Virus record (IMG/VR): IMGVR_UViG_3300045988_160394
Location: 32,001 to 96,000 of that record
DNA length: 64,000 nt
Direction: 5' to 3' (one strand)
DNA from: a virus
Each line of letters begins with the position of its first letter. The first letter of the stretch is position 1. The position numbers were made by a program, and so were the translations under genes. This document shows positions 26,433 to 35,738 of this stretch, one piece after another. The notes under the pieces were generated by a model. That model was not told the origin of the DNA, ran no database searches, and saw nothing but the letters and a program-made list of their open reading frames with translations.

Positions 26433-27299
26433 ATGCTATTAAAATGTAATCAACATAGAGATGATTTAGCGAAAAATCTAAAGAGTTATTGTAAAATTGA
26501 TGGCATAAGCATGTTTATTCAAGTAGGAGATAATCCTGCTAGTACCACTTATATTAATCAAAAAAAGAAAGCATGTGATAAAGCAGGAATACAATATGAT
26601 CATGTTGTATTAAATAAAGATATAACAGAAGAACAATTAATAGCTAAAATAAAAGAATATAACGATTGTACAGATGTTATAGGAATAATGGTTCAACTTC
26701 CTTTACCAGTTCATATTAATGAAGAAGCTATTATTAATGCTATCAAACCAGAAAAAGACATAGATGGATTCACTCATGTTAACAAAGGTAAACTAATGGT
26801 TGCAGATGAATCTGTTGTAGTTCCTTGTACTCCATACGGAATTGACGTTTTACTTGATACAATAGGCTTTGGTTATGAAGGAAAAAATGTTGTAGTGGTA
26901 GGTAGAAGTAATATAGTAGGAAAACCTATGACTCAGCTATTAATAAACAGAGGAGCTACTGTTACTTGTTGTAATAGCAAAACTTCTAAAGAAACATTAA
27001 CAAACTTAATATTAAATTCAGATTTATTTATATCTGCTATAGACAAGCCTAACTATTTTGATATACAATATTTTGGAAAGGATAATTTAGCCAAGTTATC
27101 AAATGTAATAGCTATAGATGTAGGAATATTTAGAATAGAAGATAAACTCCATGGGAATATAAACAAGGAATTATATGATTATTTTAAAGCTATTACGCCT
27201 GTTCCAGGTGGAGTAGGACCTATGACTATAGTAGGTGTATTATCTAATATTACAAAATGTGCTTCATTACAAAATAAAATAGAATTTATAGAGAAATAA
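26433..27299 (+). CDS. folD: methylene-THF dehydrogenase / methenyl-THF cyclohydrolase
   Basis: GIMVQLPLP, VVVVGRSNIVGKPM, TPVPGGVGPMT. Confidence 0.85.
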   Translation: MLLKCNQHRDDLAKNLKSYCKIDGISMFIQVGDNPASTTYINQKKKACDKAGIQYDHVVLNKDITEEQLIAKIKEYNDCTDVIGIMVQLPLPVHINEEAIINAIKPEKDIDGFTHVNKGKLMVADESVVVPCTPYGIDVLLDTIGFGYEGKNVVVVGRSNIVGKPMTQLLINRGATVTCCNSKTSKETLTNLILNSDLFISAIDKPNYFDIQYFGKDNLAKLSNVIAIDVGIFRIEDKLHGNINKELYDYFKAITPVPGGVGPMTIVGVLSNITKCASLQNKIEFIEK

Positions 27300-27508
27300 T
27301 GATAGACATTATAACTAATACTAGAGAAGCACAGGCTAATTATTTTGCATTATGTTTGTTAATGCCTAAGAAAGAATTTAAAGATGAAATGTATAAAGCT
27401 TTTAATAAAAAAGATTATACTTATGATATGCAATTAGTAGCTAATCATTTTAATGTTCCATTAGAAGCTGCTATTGTACGAGCTAGAGATTTAAGGATTA
27501 TAAAATAG
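27299..27508 (+). CDS. ImmA/IrrE-like C-terminal fragment (no HEXXH part)
   Basis: EAQANYFALCLLMP motif only; 69 aa. Confidence 0.4.
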   Translation: MIDIITNTREAQANYFALCLLMPKKEFKDEMYKAFNKKDYTYDMQLVANHFNVPLEAAIVRARDLRIIK

Positions 27509-27526: not shown

Positions 27527-28258
27527 ATGGATAAGTTTCAGATTAAGATATTAAACCCAGAAGAAGTAAAGACATTATTTAAACGTTGAGGGACGTTCGC
27601 ATGTAAATGTTATGACACTCCTGCTAAATATGCAGAAAGAGTTGGTAAATCATGCTTACAATCAGGACACTTTTCAGGATCAAGAAGTATATATATAGAA
27701 ATAGATGTTAGTAATGTACCTAGAGCTCTTGTAGATCAAATAATAAGAAGAGAACAAGGATGCGTTAAAAACGTTGAATCTGGTAGATATGTAGATTTCT
27801 CAGATTTTGATTATTATACTTCACCATTAATAGCTAATGATCCAATAGCTAAAGAGATATATGATGAACACATGAAAGCTACTAGAGAAGTTTATTCTTT
27901 ATTAGTTAAAAGATTAAATGAAAAAGGGATAACTGGTGAAAGAGCCTTTGAAGCAGCTAGAGGAGTTGCTCCTATGAACTATAGAACAGGTATGGTTCTA
28001 GGATTAACATTAGAAGCTTTAATAGGCTTATGTCATGAAAGATTATGTAGTAGAACTCAAGAACATTCTAGACATTTAATCAAGATGATAAGAGATGAGG
28101 TTCTAAAGCTTATACCTGAGTTAGAGCCATATTTAGTAGTGAAATGTGATTATCTACAATGGTGTCCAGAAGGAAGTAAATGTTGTGGTAGAAAACCAAC
28201 TAGAAAAGAATTCTTAGAATTTATTGATTCTAATAAAGTTAAAGGGAGTGTTAAGTAA
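27527..28258 (+). CDS. thyX: flavin-dependent thymidylate synthase, in-frame TGA at 27587
   Basis: ATG 27527 behind aggagg; RREQGCVKNVESGRY resembles ThyX RHRxxSxxxxSxRY; in frame with track ORF 27872..28258. Confidence 0.75.
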
Positions 28259-30888
28259 TGGCAAAGAATATAGTATTTAATTCAGATGCAAGAGAAAAGA
28301 TAAGACAAGGTGTCAATGTATTAGGAGATGCTGTTAGAGCAACTATGGGACCTAAAGGTAGAAATGCTATCTTAGAAAGAACACCTGGTTCTCCATTAAT
28401 AACTAACGATGGAGTTACTATAGCTAAAGAAATAGAATTAATAGACAATATAGAAAATATGGGAGCTCAAATAGTAAAAGAAGCAGCTATTAAGACTAAT
28501 GATGAGGCAGGAGATGGGCCACAACCTTTATATTCTAAAATATTAACACCTAATGGTTGGACTACTATGGGTGAAATAAAAAAAGGTGATGTTATATGTG
28601 GTACAAATAATACTCATCAAACAGTATTAGAAGTTTATCCTAAAGGGAAAAAAGAATTGGTTATAATTACATTCTCTAATGGCAAACAAGTTCATTGCTG
28701 TCAAGATCATTTATGGACTATAAATACAAGCTATGGAAAAAGAAAAACCATGACAACAAGAGAAATGATAAACAAAGGCGTATACAAACTTAATAGCCAA
28801 GGTGATAAAAGATATAATTTCTATACACCTTCTAACACAGTAGAGTTTCAAGAAAAAGAATTACCGATACATCCATACCTTTTAGGTGCTCTATTAGGAG
28901 ATGGCTCATTAACTGGGACAGGGAATATAGAATTAAGCTTAGGATATAATAAAGAGCACATAATAGAAAAAATATATCCGATATTACCTGACAATATACA
29001 AATATCAATACAGGATTGTTTAGACAAGAATTGTTATAGAGTCAAATTTTCAAAAATAGATAAAACTAATCCTATTTCTATGGAAAGTTTACTTAATGAA
29101 TTAAATCTATTAGGAACTAATAGTAAAAATAAATTTATACCTGAAATTTATTTATATAATTCAGTTGAAAATAGAACACAATTGTTAAATGGTTTAATAG
29201 ATACAGATGGATATAACAATAATAGAGGATTGTTTGAATTTTCTACTGTTAGCGATAAACTTAATGAATCCTTCACAGAATTAGTTAATAGCTTAGGAAT
29301 TCAAACATCATATACTTTACACAAAAGAGATAATGACTTATTATCTTATTCTTTCAATCCTATTCATAGACATACTCAATTAAAAGGTTATAAATATGGA
29401 ATAAAAATAGTAGATATTGAAGTTGTTAATAAACTAGAAGAAATGAAATGTATAAAAGTATCAAATCAAGATAATTTATATATAACAGATGGATATATAG
29501 TAACACACAACACTACTACAGCTACAGTTTTAGCACAAGCAATCATAAATGAAGGTTATAATGCTCTTTCTACAACTGAAGATGTTTCAGAAGAAGAAAA
29601 GAATCAATCTATATACAAAGGTGCCAATCCTGTTTTATTAAAGAAAGGTATAGAAATAGCTACTAAAATAGCAATAGATGAATTAAAAGCTATAGCTAAG
29701 CCTATAGAAACAGATGAAGAAATAAAACAAATAGCAACTATATCTTCTGCTAGTGATGATATAGGAGAATTAATATCTCAAGCTATTAAAAGAGTAGGTA
29801 AAGACGGTATAATTACTACTACTGAATCACATACTATAGAAACTACTTTAGAAGTTAAAGAAGGTTTTGAATTTGACAGAGGTTTTTATTCACCTTACTT
29901 TGCTGATGATCAAGAAAAAATAGAATCTGTTTTTTATAATCCATTAATACTTGTAAGTGATCAAAAGATGAGAACTCAACAAGAAATAGTACCTTTATTA
30001 GAACAAGTGTTAAAAGTTCAAAGACCTATAGTGTTTATAGTTGATGAAATAGAACAAATCGTATTCTCTTCTTTATTAAGAAATAAAATGAATGGGAATA
30101 TGGATGTAGCAGTAATAAAAGCACCTGGATTTGGGGCAAAAAGAAAAGAGCTATTACAAGATATAGCTATTTTAACAGGAGCAACTTTTATATCTGAAGA
30201 ATACGCTTTAACTATGTCAGAAGCTAGAATAAACTTATTAGGTTCATGCGAGTCTATAAAGATAACTAAAAATAATACTATTATATTTAATGGTTCTGGA
30301 GATAAAGAAGAAATAAATAAAAGAGCAGAACACATTAAGAATAGTATTAATGCTGATAATATATCAGAATACGATAAAGAAAAACTAGAAGAAAGATTAG
30401 CTAAAATAACAGGTGGTATAGCTACTATAAAAATAGGAGCTGCTACAGAGCCTGAATTAAAAGAGAAAAAGTTAAGAATAGAAGATGCTATTAATGCCAC
30501 TAAAGCAGCTATAGAAGAAGGAATAGTTGCAGGTGGTGGAACAGCTTTATTTAATCTTTCACCAGTAATATTAGAAAAGACTAAAAACTTAGTAGGAGAT
30601 GTATATCAAGGAGCATTATGTGTAGCATTAGCTGTTAATTCTCCAATAATACAAATAGCTATGAATGCAGGTGTAAATGCTACTAAGGTTATGGAAAATG
30701 TTTTAAAGACAGCTAAAGAAAAAAGCAATCCTAATATAGGATATGATGCTTATAATGATGCTTATGTTGATATGTTAGAAGTAGGAATAATAGATCCTGT
30801 AAAAGTTACTAGAAATGCATTACAAAATGCAGCTTCAGTAGCTGCTATACTGTTAACAACAGATGTAACTATAAGCAACTTTCAATAA
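28258..30888 (+). CDS. groL: GroEL chaperonin interrupted by an intein (545-aa extein)
   Basis: N-terminal AKNIVFN...GPKGRN...AGDG | intein | TTTATVLAQAI...; C-terminal GroEL equatorial domain. Confidence 0.9.
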   Translation: MAKNIVFNSDAREKIRQGVNVLGDAVRATMGPKGRNAILERTPGSPLITNDGVTIAKEIELIDNIENMGAQIVKEAAIKTNDEAGDGPQPLYSKILTPNGWTTMGEIKKGDVICGTNNTHQTVLEVYPKGKKELVIITFSNGKQVHCCQDHLWTINTSYGKRKTMTTREMINKGVYKLNSQGDKRYNFYTPSNTVEFQEKELPIHPYLLGALLGDGSLTGTGNIELSLGYNKEHIIEKIYPILPDNIQISIQDCLDKNCYRVKFSKIDKTNPISMESLLNELNLLGTNSKNKFIPEIYLYNSVENRTQLLNGLIDTDGYNNNRGLFEFSTVSDKLNESFTELVNSLGIQTSYTLHKRDNDLLSYSFNPIHRHTQLKGYKYGIKIVDIEVVNKLEEMKCIKVSNQDNLYITDGYIVTHNTTTATVLAQAIINEGYNALSTTEDVSEEEKNQSIYKGANPVLLKKGIEIATKIAIDELKAIAKPIETDEEIKQIATISSASDDIGELISQAIKRVGKDGIITTTESHTIETTLEVKEGFEFDRGFYSPYFADDQEKIESVFYNPLILVSDQKMRTQQEIVPLLEQVLKVQRPIVFIVDEIEQIVFSSLLRNKMNGNMDVAVIKAPGFGAKRKELLQDIAILTGATFISEEYALTMSEARINLLGSCESIKITKNNTIIFNGSGDKEEINKRAEHIKNSINADNISEYDKEKLEERLAKITGGIATIKIGAATEPELKEKKLRIEDAINATKAAIEEGIVAGGGTALFNLSPVILEKTKNLVGDVYQGALCVALAVNSPIIQIAMNAGVNATKVMENVLKTAKEKSNPNIGYDAYNDAYVDMLEVGIIDPVKVTRNALQNAASVAAILLTTDVTISNFQ
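28519..29511 (+). mobile_element. 331-aa LAGLIDADG intein in GroEL GDG/TTT ATP-binding motif, class-3-like (WCT)
   Basis: Starts Pro (PQPLYSKILTPNGW), block B CQDHLW, LLGALLGDGS and LLNGLIDTDGY, block F KCIKV, ends IVTHN followed by Thr. Confidence 0.85.
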
Positions 30889-30965: not shown

Positions 30966-31859
30966 ATGTGAGAAAGAAAGCTAACGAATAAACAGAAGAA
31001 AAAAGAAAAACAATTGAAGAAACAAAAAGAAAAAGCTGAAAGAGAACAATTTATTAATAGCTGTATGAAAGAGATTAATGATGAATTAGACAGAAGTTAT
31101 ATTGTAATTGACGATATGCTAGAAAAAATAAGTAAAGATTTTGTTGATTCTGCTATTAAAATAGAAGAATATAAACAGTCACTAATTCATATTGCATACA
31201 GAGATGATTTGGATAAAGAAAGTTATTCAGATTATAAAGAAGTTAAAGATATTATTACTAATATAGAAGAGATTAGAAAAAATATGAATTCTAAATATAT
31301 AGATATGTTTTCTGATAGTACAGAGAATTCTATACTCCAATTAGCAGAAGAATCTATAAATAAAATTGCTGATATTATTAAAAGCATTCAAGCAGATATA
31401 AAAGGCCAAAAGAATGACTTTTTAATACTTTCTATATTATTGGATAGGTCTAAGAGAATATTAGAAGAATATAACACATACATAGTAGAATCTGTCTTAG
31501 AATCTAATCCTTATATTGATGCGTATATAGAAACAGAAGAATCTTATTATAATTTCTTATTAGAAATAGTAGGAGATAAAGAAGATAATCCTGAAGATAT
31601 TACACAAGAAGAAATAAGAAAATACAATGATAGATTAAGAGTAGAATATTCTGATTTATCAAGATTTCTTACTTTAAAGGGATATGTATGCGTTAGACAA
31701 AATAGTACGACTCATGCAATATGGAGAAACGAAGAATTAGGAATATCTGTTCCATTACCTAATAAATCTGGTACAGTTCCACAAGGAACAGTTTCTAAGC
31801 TATTAAGAATAATAAATAGTAATAGATATGAATTAGCAGAATTTATAATGGAGGAATAG
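30966..31859 (+). CDS. coiled-coil protein with C-terminal HicA-like domain; TGA as codon 2
   Basis: ATG 30966 behind aaggagg; C-terminal FLTLKGYVCVRQNSTTHAIW...VPLPNKSGTVPQGTVSKLLR. Confidence 0.55.
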
Positions 31860-31861
31860 TT

Positions 31862-32125
31862 ATGGTTGTATTTGTTATAATAGAAGAAACATTGTTTGAA
31901 AATGAAAATCCATTAAATGAAATTGTATATATAACTTCAAGTAAAGAAGATTGTTTAAGTACTCTTAATAGACAATATCGTTTAGCAATAGCTGATATGT
32001 GCAATAAAGCAGAAGGCGAACTTGACTTAAATAATATGACTTTTATAGTGAAAAGTATTGAAAATAATGATATTATTCGTGGCAGAATAGAACAGCATTA
32101 TGTTTATATGCAAGAGGAGGAATAA
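31862..32125 (+). CDS. small protein, paralogue of next gene
   Basis: Shared C-terminal RGRIEQHYV / TGRIERHVV. Confidence 0.5.
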   Translation: MVVFVIIEETLFENENPLNEIVYITSSKEDCLSTLNRQYRLAIADMCNKAEGELDLNNMTFIVKSIENNDIIRGRIEQHYVYMQEEE

Positions 32126-34128: not shown

Positions 34129-34247
34129 GCGGGTTTCACGTAGTTTGGTTAGCGTTCTGGTCTTCAAAACCAGTGACAGGCACCATGTTCGACATGCTTT
34201 AATGTTTTGGTTATAAGTCTGCGGGGGTTCGAATCCCTCAACCCGTG
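34129..34247 (+). tRNA. tRNA with anticodon UCA (UGA-decoding, Trp-like anticodon arm), 49-nt insertion in variable region, no encoded CCA
   Basis: Acceptor gcgggtt/aacccgt, D arm acgt/gcgt, anticodon arm ctggt-cttcaaa-accag (anticodon 34164..34166), T arm ggggg-ttcgaat-ccctc. Confidence 0.6.
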
Positions 34248-35129: not shown

Positions 35130-35204
35130 TGCGGTATAGCCAAGTGGAAAGGCAGCTGACTTTGACTCAGCTATGCGTAGGTTCAATTCCTACTACCGCT
35201 GCCA
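35130..35204 (+). tRNA. tRNA-Gln (UUG), CCA encoded
   Basis: Cloverleaf folded by hand; anticodon loop cttTTGac; U1.U72 mismatch. Confidence 0.8.
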
Positions 35205-35208
35205 ATAA

Positions 35209-35285
35209 TGTGGTGTAGCTCAATCGGTTAGAGCATACGTCTGATAAGCGTAAGGTTACAAGTTCAATTCTTGTCACCACAACCA
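35209..35285 (+). tRNA. tRNA-Ile (GAU), CCA encoded
   Basis: Acceptor tgtggtg/caccaca, loop ctGATaa. Confidence 0.9.
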
Positions 35286-35341
35286 CAACTAGATTAAAAT
35301 ATTCTAGTAAAAATATATGGTGTATATATTTGCGATGTAAA

Positions 35342-35434
35342 TAAGATAAAGCTCAGCCAGGTTAGAGCACATGGGTTATTATGAGGCATTGTAATAATAC
35401 TTTGGAGTCGTGGGTTCAAATCCCACTATCTTAT
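35342..35434 (+). tRNA. tRNA-like element with canonical acceptor, D and T arms but 18 extra nt in the anticodon region
   Basis: Acceptor taagata/tatctta, D gctc/gagc, T gtggg/cccac; anticodon not assignable. Confidence 0.4.
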
Positions 35435-35443
35435 TTATATTAA

Positions 35444-35520
35444 TGCGGTATAGCTTAGTTGGTAAAAGCCCTCGATTCATAACCGAGAGATCACAAGTTC
35501 GAATCTTGTTACCGCAACCA
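35444..35520 (+). tRNA. tRNA (CAU): elongator Met or Ile2, CCA encoded
   Basis: Acceptor tgcggta/taccgca, loop ttCATaa; no initiator features. Confidence 0.85.
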
Positions 35521-35530
35521 TTATATTAAA

Positions 35531-35625
35531 GGTTGATTCTCCAGCCTGGAGGTGAGAAGTTGATAAAACACTCACTAAACGCCATAAAAGGTAATCACGA
35601 ATGTGAGCGTGTGATTAACTATTTT
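35531..35625 (+). ncRNA. orphan third copy of the tracrRNA-like scaffold, between two tRNAs
   Basis: ggttgattctccagcct..gtgag..ctcactaaacgcc..gcgtgt collinear with 19721 and 20085 copies. Confidence 0.45.
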
Positions 35626-35663
35626 ATATAGTAGAAGAGTCCCTTATCTTCCTCTATTGTTAT

Positions 35664-35738
35664 GGGAATATAGTACAAAGGTTAGTACAATCGGCTGTTA
35701 ACCGATAGATCCTGGTTCGATTCCATGTATTCCCGCCA
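35664..35738 (+). tRNA. tRNA-Asn (GUU), CCA encoded
   Basis: Acceptor gggaata/tattccc, loop ctGTTaa; one T-stem mismatch. Confidence 0.8.

Follow-up and report, generated by a model that had tools for sequence, protein, structure and literature searches.

Class 3 inteins are defined by the absence of a nucleophile at position 1, by a triplet of Trp at B12, Cys at F4 and Thr at G5 (the WCT triplet) and by Thr or Ser at position +1 (PMC2807308, Tori et al. 2010; PMC5050341, Kelley et al. 2016), and further by an obligate role of the block F Cys as nucleophile and by a branched intermediate that is thiol-labile (PMC2807308; PMC5050341). In the prototype, the "DnaB" intein of mycobacteriophage Bethlehem (MP-Be DnaB), the block F Cys is essential for N-terminal cleavage as well as for splicing, and in the 2010 description of the class, inteins without an N-terminal nucleophile, KlbA apart, were confined to helicase-like proteins and terminases, where most of them sat in P-loops (PMC2807308). 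Conditional splicing under redox or zinc control has been shown for the class 3 mini-inteins DnaBi1 of Mycobacterium smegmatis and DnaB-1 of M. chimaera (6BS8, 6RIX), and in DnaBi1 a disulfide with a second Cys can trap the catalytic block F Cys (PMC6195587, PMC7664689). Here we describe an intein of this rare type in the GroEL gene of an uncultured virus, IMG/VR record IMGVR_UViG_3300045988_160394. The window analysed is the 64,000-nt stretch covering positions 32,001 to 96,000 of that record, and all coordinates refer to the window unless another contig is named. We consider it highly probable that the element is a functional, mobile class 3 intein, composed of a Hint splicing domain and a LAGLIDADG endonuclease and lodged in the GDG/TTT loop of a jumbo-phage GroEL (a slash marks an insertion point or splice junction).

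The translation of the GroEL gene reads ...IKTNDEAGDG/PQPLYSKILTPNGW...GYIVTHN/TTTATVLAQAI around the insert, whose boundaries are unambiguous because the flanking residues differ at each junction. The original prediction had placed a 331-residue insert at GDG/TTT in an 876-residue GroEL open reading frame (ORF), and the insert was recovered exactly there, as residues 88-418 of the precursor (nt 28519-29511). Every motif it had listed, namely blocks A, B, F and G, two LAGLIDADG motifs and Thr+1, was present at the expected codons. The parts of the gene are as follows.

28258-30888, plus strand: GroEL precursor gene with the intein in frame, 876 codons and a TAA stop, from the ORF list (Cpn60_TCP1, 7.9e-57)
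28258-28518, plus strand: N-extein of 87 residues, ending in the phosphate-binding loop at ...NDEAGDG, from alignment to GroEL structures
28519-29511, plus strand: intein of 331 residues, a Hint splicing domain interrupted by a LAGLIDADG endonuclease domain, from the prototype alignment, the AlphaFold2 model and the empty allele
28519-28560, plus strand: block A, PQPLYSKILTPNGW, opening with the non-nucleophilic Pro1 (CCA, 28519-28521)
28690-28722, plus strand: block B, VHCCQDHLWTI, with Cys61 at B7, His64 at B10 and Trp66 (28714-28716) at B12 in the prototype register
28819-29388, plus strand: LAGLIDADG homing-endonuclease domain, approximately intein residues 101-290, from Hom_end, LAGLIDADG_3 and I-DmoI/PI-SceI fold matches
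28873-28908, plus strand: LAGLIDADG motif 1, PYLLGALLGDGS (LLGALLGDGS), acidic residue Asp128
29179-29214, plus strand: LAGLIDADG motif 2, QLLNGLIDTDGY (LLNGLIDTDGY), acidic residue Asp230
29437-29484, plus strand: block F, EEMKCIKVSNQDNLYI (EEMKCIKV...), with Cys311 (29449-29451) at F4, the predicted initiating nucleophile
29491-29514, plus strand: block G, GYIVTHN, with Thr329 at G5, His330 and Asn331, plus Thr+1 (29512-29514), which opens the C-extein
29512-30888, plus strand: C-extein of 458 residues and stop, beginning TTTATVLAQAI, from the ORF and the GroEL structure alignment

The GDGTTT loop of GroEL binds nucleotide phosphates and holds the catalytic Asp87. In alignments to GroEL structures, the GDG that closes the N-extein corresponds to G86-D87-G88 of E. 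coli GroEL, and the alignment offset places the insertion point at G88/T89 in E. coli numbering. Joining 28258-28518 to 29512-30885 gave a 545-residue protein whose residues 2-542 align with GroEL structures (best E 1e-154; E. coli GroEL, ~1e-136), so that removal of the insert leaves a full-length GroEL-family match, including the GDGTTT nucleotide-binding motif, as expected of a group I chaperonin. The unspliced precursor itself scored above the NCBIfam TIGR02348 GroEL equivalog cut-off (609.7 vs 582.1 bits), in two stretches, and no intein-containing GroEL model was found among its NCBIfam matches. That excision would leave a canonical 545-residue chaperonin, as had been claimed, is also borne out by natural empty-site alleles of exactly that length, described below. 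The element thus has the marks of an intein: it is an in-frame insert in a conserved protein whose removal restores the host sequence, and it carries blocks A, B, F and G with block B His64, His330-Asn331 and Thr+1, all invariant in its family. Its G+C content is 26.5%, lower than that of the flanking exteins (34% and 29.5%). Alternative boundaries that would give a Cys or Ser start were considered and discarded on the junction residues and on the empty allele, which fixes the boundaries to the nucleotide. A group I intron or a separate endonuclease ORF was likewise ruled out, as the frame runs on without a break, the endonuclease lies between Hint blocks and no Rfam intron was found here.

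Profile and structure comparisons identify both domains of the insert. Pfam Hom_end matched it above its cut-off (1.9e-7), and a search of PDB sequences returned the intein gp41-1 along with class 3 DnaB mini-inteins from M. smegmatis and M. chimaera, aligned over the ...H.W segment of block B and the ..C.. and THN segments of block F and the C-terminal end. An AlphaFold2 model of the intein, built on 25 family members, reached a predicted local distance difference test (pLDDT) score of 93.8 and a predicted template-modelling (pTM) score of 0.90. In Foldseek searches with this model, the top ranks were taken by bifunctional inteins, with TliVMA giving the lowest E-value and PI-SceI the highest template-modelling (TM) score (0.72), together with PI-PfuI, and lower ranks held the class 3 mini-inteins 6BS8 and 6RIX, gp41-1, I-DmoI-type LAGLIDADG enzymes and the Hedgehog autoprocessing domain. 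The matches to intein structures and to the Hedgehog domain identify a Hint fold in the model. Two-motif LAGLIDADG enzymes are built of alpha-beta-beta-alpha-beta-beta-alpha repeats in which each LAGLIDADG helix carries a catalytic acidic residue, and Asp128, Asp230, the Hom_end match and the I-DmoI and PI-SceI fold matches are those expected of a monomeric enzyme of this kind. The Pfam, PDB-sequence, AlphaFold2 and Foldseek results therefore agree with the proposal of an intein containing a LAGLIDADG endonuclease domain. PI-SceI and the other VMA-type bifunctional inteins (PDB 1VDE, 7QSS), which are the best structural matches (TM 0.72), share with the GroEL intein the combination of Hint and LAGLIDADG domains and a homing lifestyle. 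They differ in being class 1 inteins, with a Cys1 nucleophile and Asp at F4, in their low sequence identity (13-14%) and in their hosts, which are eukaryotic or archaeal V-ATPases.

For comparison with the class 3 prototype, the Bethlehem intein was taken from gp11 of AY500153 by means of its published junction, VSQDQ/TKNTF. Bethlehem gp52, annotated as "phosphoesterase", was tried as the prototype host and rejected, as it lacks that junction. BLASTP aligned the GroEL intein with the Bethlehem intein from the first residue to the last (28% identity, E 4e-33). In this alignment Pro1 pairs with Pro1, Cys61 with Ser62 (B7), His64 with His65 (B10), Trp66 with Trp67 (B12) and Cys311 with Cys320 (F4), both LAGLIDADG motifs are in register, Thr329-His330-Asn331 falls on Thr339-His340-Asn341, and Thr occupies +1 in both. 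The GroEL intein thus carries every class 3 sequence feature, with Pro1, the complete WCT triplet (Trp66, Cys311, Thr329) and Thr+1, and the proposed W-C-T signature with a Pro start was upheld both by the register with a characterised Pro1 prototype and by conservation within the family. We infer a class 3 mechanism for the GroEL intein from its homology to this prototype, with which it has even the unusual Pro1 in common.

The two inteins are alike (PMC2807308) in Pro1, Trp at B12, Cys at F4, Thr at G5, the Thr-His-Asn end and Thr+1, in their two-domain layout with two LAGLIDADG motifs and similar length (341 residues in Bethlehem vs 331), and in being phage-borne within a nucleotide-binding protein. 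They differ in site, which is the Walker A P-loop of a helicase/terminase-type ATPase in Bethlehem and the chaperonin GDG/TTT loop here, and in block B, which reads ASASHGW in Bethlehem and CCxDHLW in the GroEL intein, with an invariant Cys60 and mostly Cys at B7. Biochemical proof belongs to the Bethlehem intein, whereas the GroEL intein is known from sequence. DnaBi1 and DnaB-1 (PMC6195587, PMC7664689) likewise share the WCT triplet, the THN end and both sequence and fold matches with the GroEL intein, but they are endonuclease-free mini-inteins in bacterial chromosomal genes.

Conservation was assessed in a GroEL-intein family defined as clusters at 90% identity among the 120 best protein-search matches to the precursor. 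Among these matches there were at least 90 clusters of 800-925-residue chaperonins, all with an insert at GDG/TTT and with intact ORFs. The pattern GDG/P...THN/T was found in 90/90 of the long clusters, with Thr+1 in all 90. Across 73 aligned GroEL inteins, Pro1, Gln2, His64, Cys311, Thr329, His330 and Asn331 were invariant, as were Thr10, Pro11 and Gly13 of block A, and Trp66 was kept in 70 (96%). The acidic LAGLIDADG residues were retained in 68/73 (Asp128) and 67/73 (Asp230).

Further cysteines of the intein are also conserved. Cys27 (28597-28599) is nearly invariant and Cys60 is invariant (Cys60-Cys61 lie at 28696-28701). Position 7 of block B is Cys in 56/73 GroEL inteins and Ser in most of the others, and the ECC..HLW block also occurs in related P-loop inteins that begin with Ala. 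By analogy with DnaBi1, it is conceivable that Cys27, Cys60 and Cys61 form a redox or metal trap with the catalytic Cys311. Conditional splicing through such a redox or zinc trap, by which the phage would gate chaperonin maturation after translation, is speculation for the GroEL intein, and we regard it as unlikely.

Evidence for mobility came from natural alleles without the intein. The 90%-identity cluster that holds the window's protein mixes 876-residue and 545-residue members. An intein-less allele from another metagenome, L001, has 98.5% nucleotide identity to the window's ligated exteins and lacks exactly 993 nt, and it supplies, with the 545-residue cluster members, the empty sites that the original prediction had suggested looking for among related phages. 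L001 differs from the ligated exteins at 25 nt, 22 of them synonymous. Four of the 25 differences, at -13, -4, -1 and +23, lie within ±30 nt of the insertion site and all are synonymous (binomial P 0.012), such that L001 reads ...GCAGGAGACGGA/ACTACTACAGCTACAGTT... and the ligated exteins of the window read ...GGAGATGGG/ACTACT.... Nei-Gojobori comparison of the window with two relatives gave ratios of nonsynonymous to synonymous substitution rates (dN/dS) of 0.12-0.19 for the intein and 0.09-0.16 for its endonuclease domain. Over 4,095 pairs, the inteins averaged 52% identity and their exteins 37%, with only a weak correlation between the two (r = 0.32). One pair has exteins that are 47% identical and inteins that are 91% identical, and for the window and P0004 the values are 48% and 73%. 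That the inteins are more alike than the chaperonins that host them points to horizontal spread. Presence/absence polymorphism, purifying selection and the decoupling of intein from extein similarity together indicate that the GroEL intein is likely both functional and mobile.

An intein that still splices but no longer moves, its endonuclease inactive or repurposed and its persistence due to vertical descent with polymorphism by precise loss, is quite unlikely. The presence/absence polymorphism could in principle reflect precise loss and not gain, and one LAGLIDADG Asp is lost in ~7-8% of family members, but both catalytic Asp residues are present in the window's intein, purifying selection is strongest in the endonuclease domain, and intein similarity is so largely decoupled from extein similarity as to require horizontal transfer. 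Archaeal thermosomes, too, carry this type of intein at the homologous site, as set out below.

By homology to the Bethlehem prototype, the mobile class 3 intein would fold within the 876-residue precursor, and Cys311 (F4), aided by block B His64 and Trp66, would attack the Gly87-Pro1 peptide bond to form a thioester-branched intermediate. Cyclisation of Asn331 would then free the intein, and an O-to-N shift would restore the native GDGTTT loop in a 545-residue chaperonin. The unspliced GroEL precursor would presumably be inactive. During co-infection the endonuclease, with a predicted specificity for intein-less GroEL alleles, would cut these alleles and repair would copy the intein into them (homing).

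Pro1 excludes class 1 chemistry, but alone it cannot separate class 3 from a class 2-like route in which Thr+1 attacks the N-terminal junction directly, as in the KlbA Ala1 inteins, with the block F Cys in a structural or activating role and no thioester branch. The prototype model leaves room for such a route, as in it Thr+1 is about as distant from the scissile bond as the block F Cys is (PMC2807308). It is nevertheless very unlikely here, since class 2 inteins lack the WCT triplet (PMC2807308), of which the W, C and T are 96-100% conserved in this family, since in the prototype N-terminal cleavage and splicing alike depend absolutely on the homologous Cys (PMC2807308), and since homology over the full length is to class 3 inteins and not to KlbA. 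Least credible of all is a decayed or domesticated insert that does not splice, whether it forms a stable extra chaperonin domain or inactivates a gene that is dispensable, for although splicing is here a prediction from sequence and phage GroELs are accessory genes that have strongly diverged (mean extein identity 37%), the catalytic residues are invariant over 73-90 diverged copies, dN/dS is 0.1-0.2, the ORF is intact in every long match, the exteins still pass the GroEL equivalog model, and a 331-residue domain in the GDGTTT loop beside the catalytic Asp is, from established GroEL structure, incompatible with ATP binding.

Several observations weigh against the view that the element is functional, mobile and of class 3. 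For every GroEL intein, splicing, a branched intermediate and endonuclease activity are predictions, and Phe replaces Trp at B12 in 3/73 of the aligned copies. In the comparison with Pfam intein and LAGLIDADG profiles that had been proposed as a check, Hom_end stood above its cut-off, but the Intein_splicing and LAGLIDADG_3 matches to the insert fell below their gathering thresholds. The clustering of differences near the insertion site of L001 is modest and weak, and suggests a fit with either a co-conversion tract or a cleavage-resistant site.

The distribution of the element was examined with a degenerate DNA pattern for GDGPQPLY. In IMG/VR the pattern was found on 51 viral contigs of up to 390 kb, all of which proved on inspection to hold chaperonin-intein junctions, and one of these contigs carries a T4-type portal, prohead protease and terminase near the GroEL gene. 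A scan of IMG/VR for empty GroEL sites gave at least 120 matches. In 596 Gb of GTDB species-representative genomes it gave 58 matches, 55 of them chance and 3 real, indicating that the intein belongs essentially to viral chaperonins and not to cellular GroEL. Among 50,697 GenBank phage records, tblastn with the whole precursor found none covering at least 80% of it, and all GroEL matches were uninterrupted. Related inteins were found by tblastn in 681 phage records.

The nearest relatives in isolate phages are class-3-type inteins beginning with Ala in the Walker A GK/T motif of helicases and a terminase, at 34-39% identity, from phages of Escherichia, Clostridium, Bacteroides and Eggerthella; examples are the Escherichia phage ph0011 helicase, Clostridium phage phi8074-B1 gp42, the Bacteroides phage BS-TP3 terminase large subunit (TerL) and the Eggerthella phage LE2-3 helicase. 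They share with the GroEL intein the motifs (A/P)QPLYSKVLTP.G, ECC..HLW, C.CI.V and LYITD.YIVTHN/T and a LAGLIDADG domain, and they too split a glycine-rich phosphate-binding loop just before Thr. They differ in having Ala1, P-loop nucleoside triphosphatase hosts and a length of 344-365 residues, where the GroEL intein has Pro1 and sits in an equatorial domain. The lineage would derive from Ala1/Pro1 class 3 inteins at the Walker A GK/T of phage helicases and terminases, and the GroEL intein is best read as a putative Pro1 offshoot of that phage lineage that moved between glycine-rich phosphate loops preceding Thr.

Two of the three real GTDB matches and one ENA fragment proved to be group II chaperonins (thermosomes) and not GroEL, with a junction of the form ...ITNDGATILREM.LEHPAA.MMVE.A..QE..VGDG/PQPLYSKVLTP.... 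In L087 (JBAZFG010000015.1, a Ca. Nanoarchaeia metagenome-assembled genome, MAG) the N-extein matches archaeal thermosomes (E ~1e-26) and ends precisely at GDG, while L094 (CAZBAB010000077.1, a Ca. Woesearchaeota MAG) and the ENA fragment P0140 owe their thermosome label to the conserved motif only. All three examples end at contig ends, and the fragments are compatible with either a chromosomal or a viral location. A metagenome scan with the thermosome-type junction pattern gave 14 matches, all chance, and no further thermosome inteins. The thermosome inteins, observed on three independent contig-end fragments from DPANN-type MAGs or metagenomes, may mean that one class 3 lineage left Walker A sites, its ancestral location, and colonised the universally conserved chaperonin GDG/TTT loop in two domains of life, with phage GroEL as its main host.

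An identical GroEL-plus-intein gene was found on a 263,172-bp metagenomic contig, and near-identical proteins on 257-265-kb contigs from several samples, indicating that the window is part of an uncultured jumbo phage of ~263 kb and ~27% G+C. Megablast of the locus against the GenBank phage records gave no match, and hence no close relative there. The long ORFs of the window all lie on one strand, and its genes include T4-type topoisomerase II subunits, an NAD-dependent ligase, an RNA ligase/kinase, NadR-like, NUDIX, FolD and ThyX. Five tRNA matches were obtained, four by ARAGORN and a fifth by Rfam only. The fifth, at 34129-34247 (plus strand), matches the Rfam tRNA model end to end (47.9 bits) over 119 nt, ~45 nt more than the length of a tRNA, and may represent a tRNA interrupted by an insertion or an intron; a cluster of four tRNAs (35130-35738) lies downstream of it.

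Directly upstream of the GroEL gene, thyX (27527-28258, plus strand) is a 243-codon frame with a single in-frame TGA at 27587-27589 (..LFKR-stop-GTFACKCY..). The TGA occupies the same codon in three relatives (L001, L002 and L003), two of which have clearly diverged GroELs, and the more distant L125 has an uninterrupted 249-residue thyX gene call. General recoding of TGA was ruled out, as in-frame TGAs are only isolated and TGA is an ordinary rare stop in the window; the thyX codon suggests either local read-through or recoding, or else a split gene that is tolerated. Between folD and thyX, a small Peptidase_M78-like ORF (27299-27508) was called in L002, L003 and L014 and not in L001 or L013. 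The ORF downstream of GroEL (31014-31859) has a weak, sub-threshold HicA_toxin match (2.6e-5), and the corresponding calls in relatives are 246-292 residues long.

Elsewhere in the window, an ORF at 18296-19636 (plus strand) encodes a 446-residue TnpB/Cas12f-like protein (Pfam Cas12f1-like_TNB, 1.1e-21, and OrfB_IS605). It is followed by 29-33-nt repeats matching Rfam CRISPR-DR3 at 19889, 19955 and 20278, the first two 66 nt apart, and near these repeats there is a duplicated unit of ~390 bp (19767-19860 and 20156-20250) within the region 19767-20307. The repeats may represent a mini-array carried by the phage, or else belong to the guide-RNA region of an IS605-type element. On the T4-like, 390,884-bp IMG contig Ga0310364_1051794 (L006), which carries the GroEL intein, TerL appears at 12790-15530 as two adjacent genes of 209 and 698 residues, both matching Terminase_6N, which suggests another intervening element or a split gene.

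Searches of the full-text literature turned up no report of inteins in GroEL, Cpn60, Hsp60 or thermosomes, a provisional result given the incomplete coverage of such searches, and the main text of a large survey of intein hosts among bacteria and archaea mentions no chaperonin intein. The literature and the GenBank phage records thus agree with the original prediction that no inteins were known at this site of GroEL, though they are common in uncultured phages. The finding is a class 3 LAGLIDADG intein, an element of a kind already known, in a host protein and at a site that are provisionally undescribed, and it is widespread in uncultured large phages. The chaperonin joins a list of intein hosts dominated by replication, recombination and repair ATPases, and GDG/TTT adds a nucleotide-binding motif that is not a P-loop to the sites of class 3 inteins. 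Its presence at this motif in chaperonins of both group I and group II offers an example of a single endonuclease lineage making use of a motif that is conserved between domains. With at least 90 clusters and 51 IMG/VR contigs, and with filled and empty alleles ~1.5% apart in DNA, the family offers a natural system for the study of homing and of ectopic jumps from GK/T to GDG/T. It also makes available for protein engineering many new Pro1 class 3 inteins with Thr+1, whose chemistry is predicted. The GroEL intein is not mechanistically new; it broadens the range of hosts and sites of class 3 inteins.

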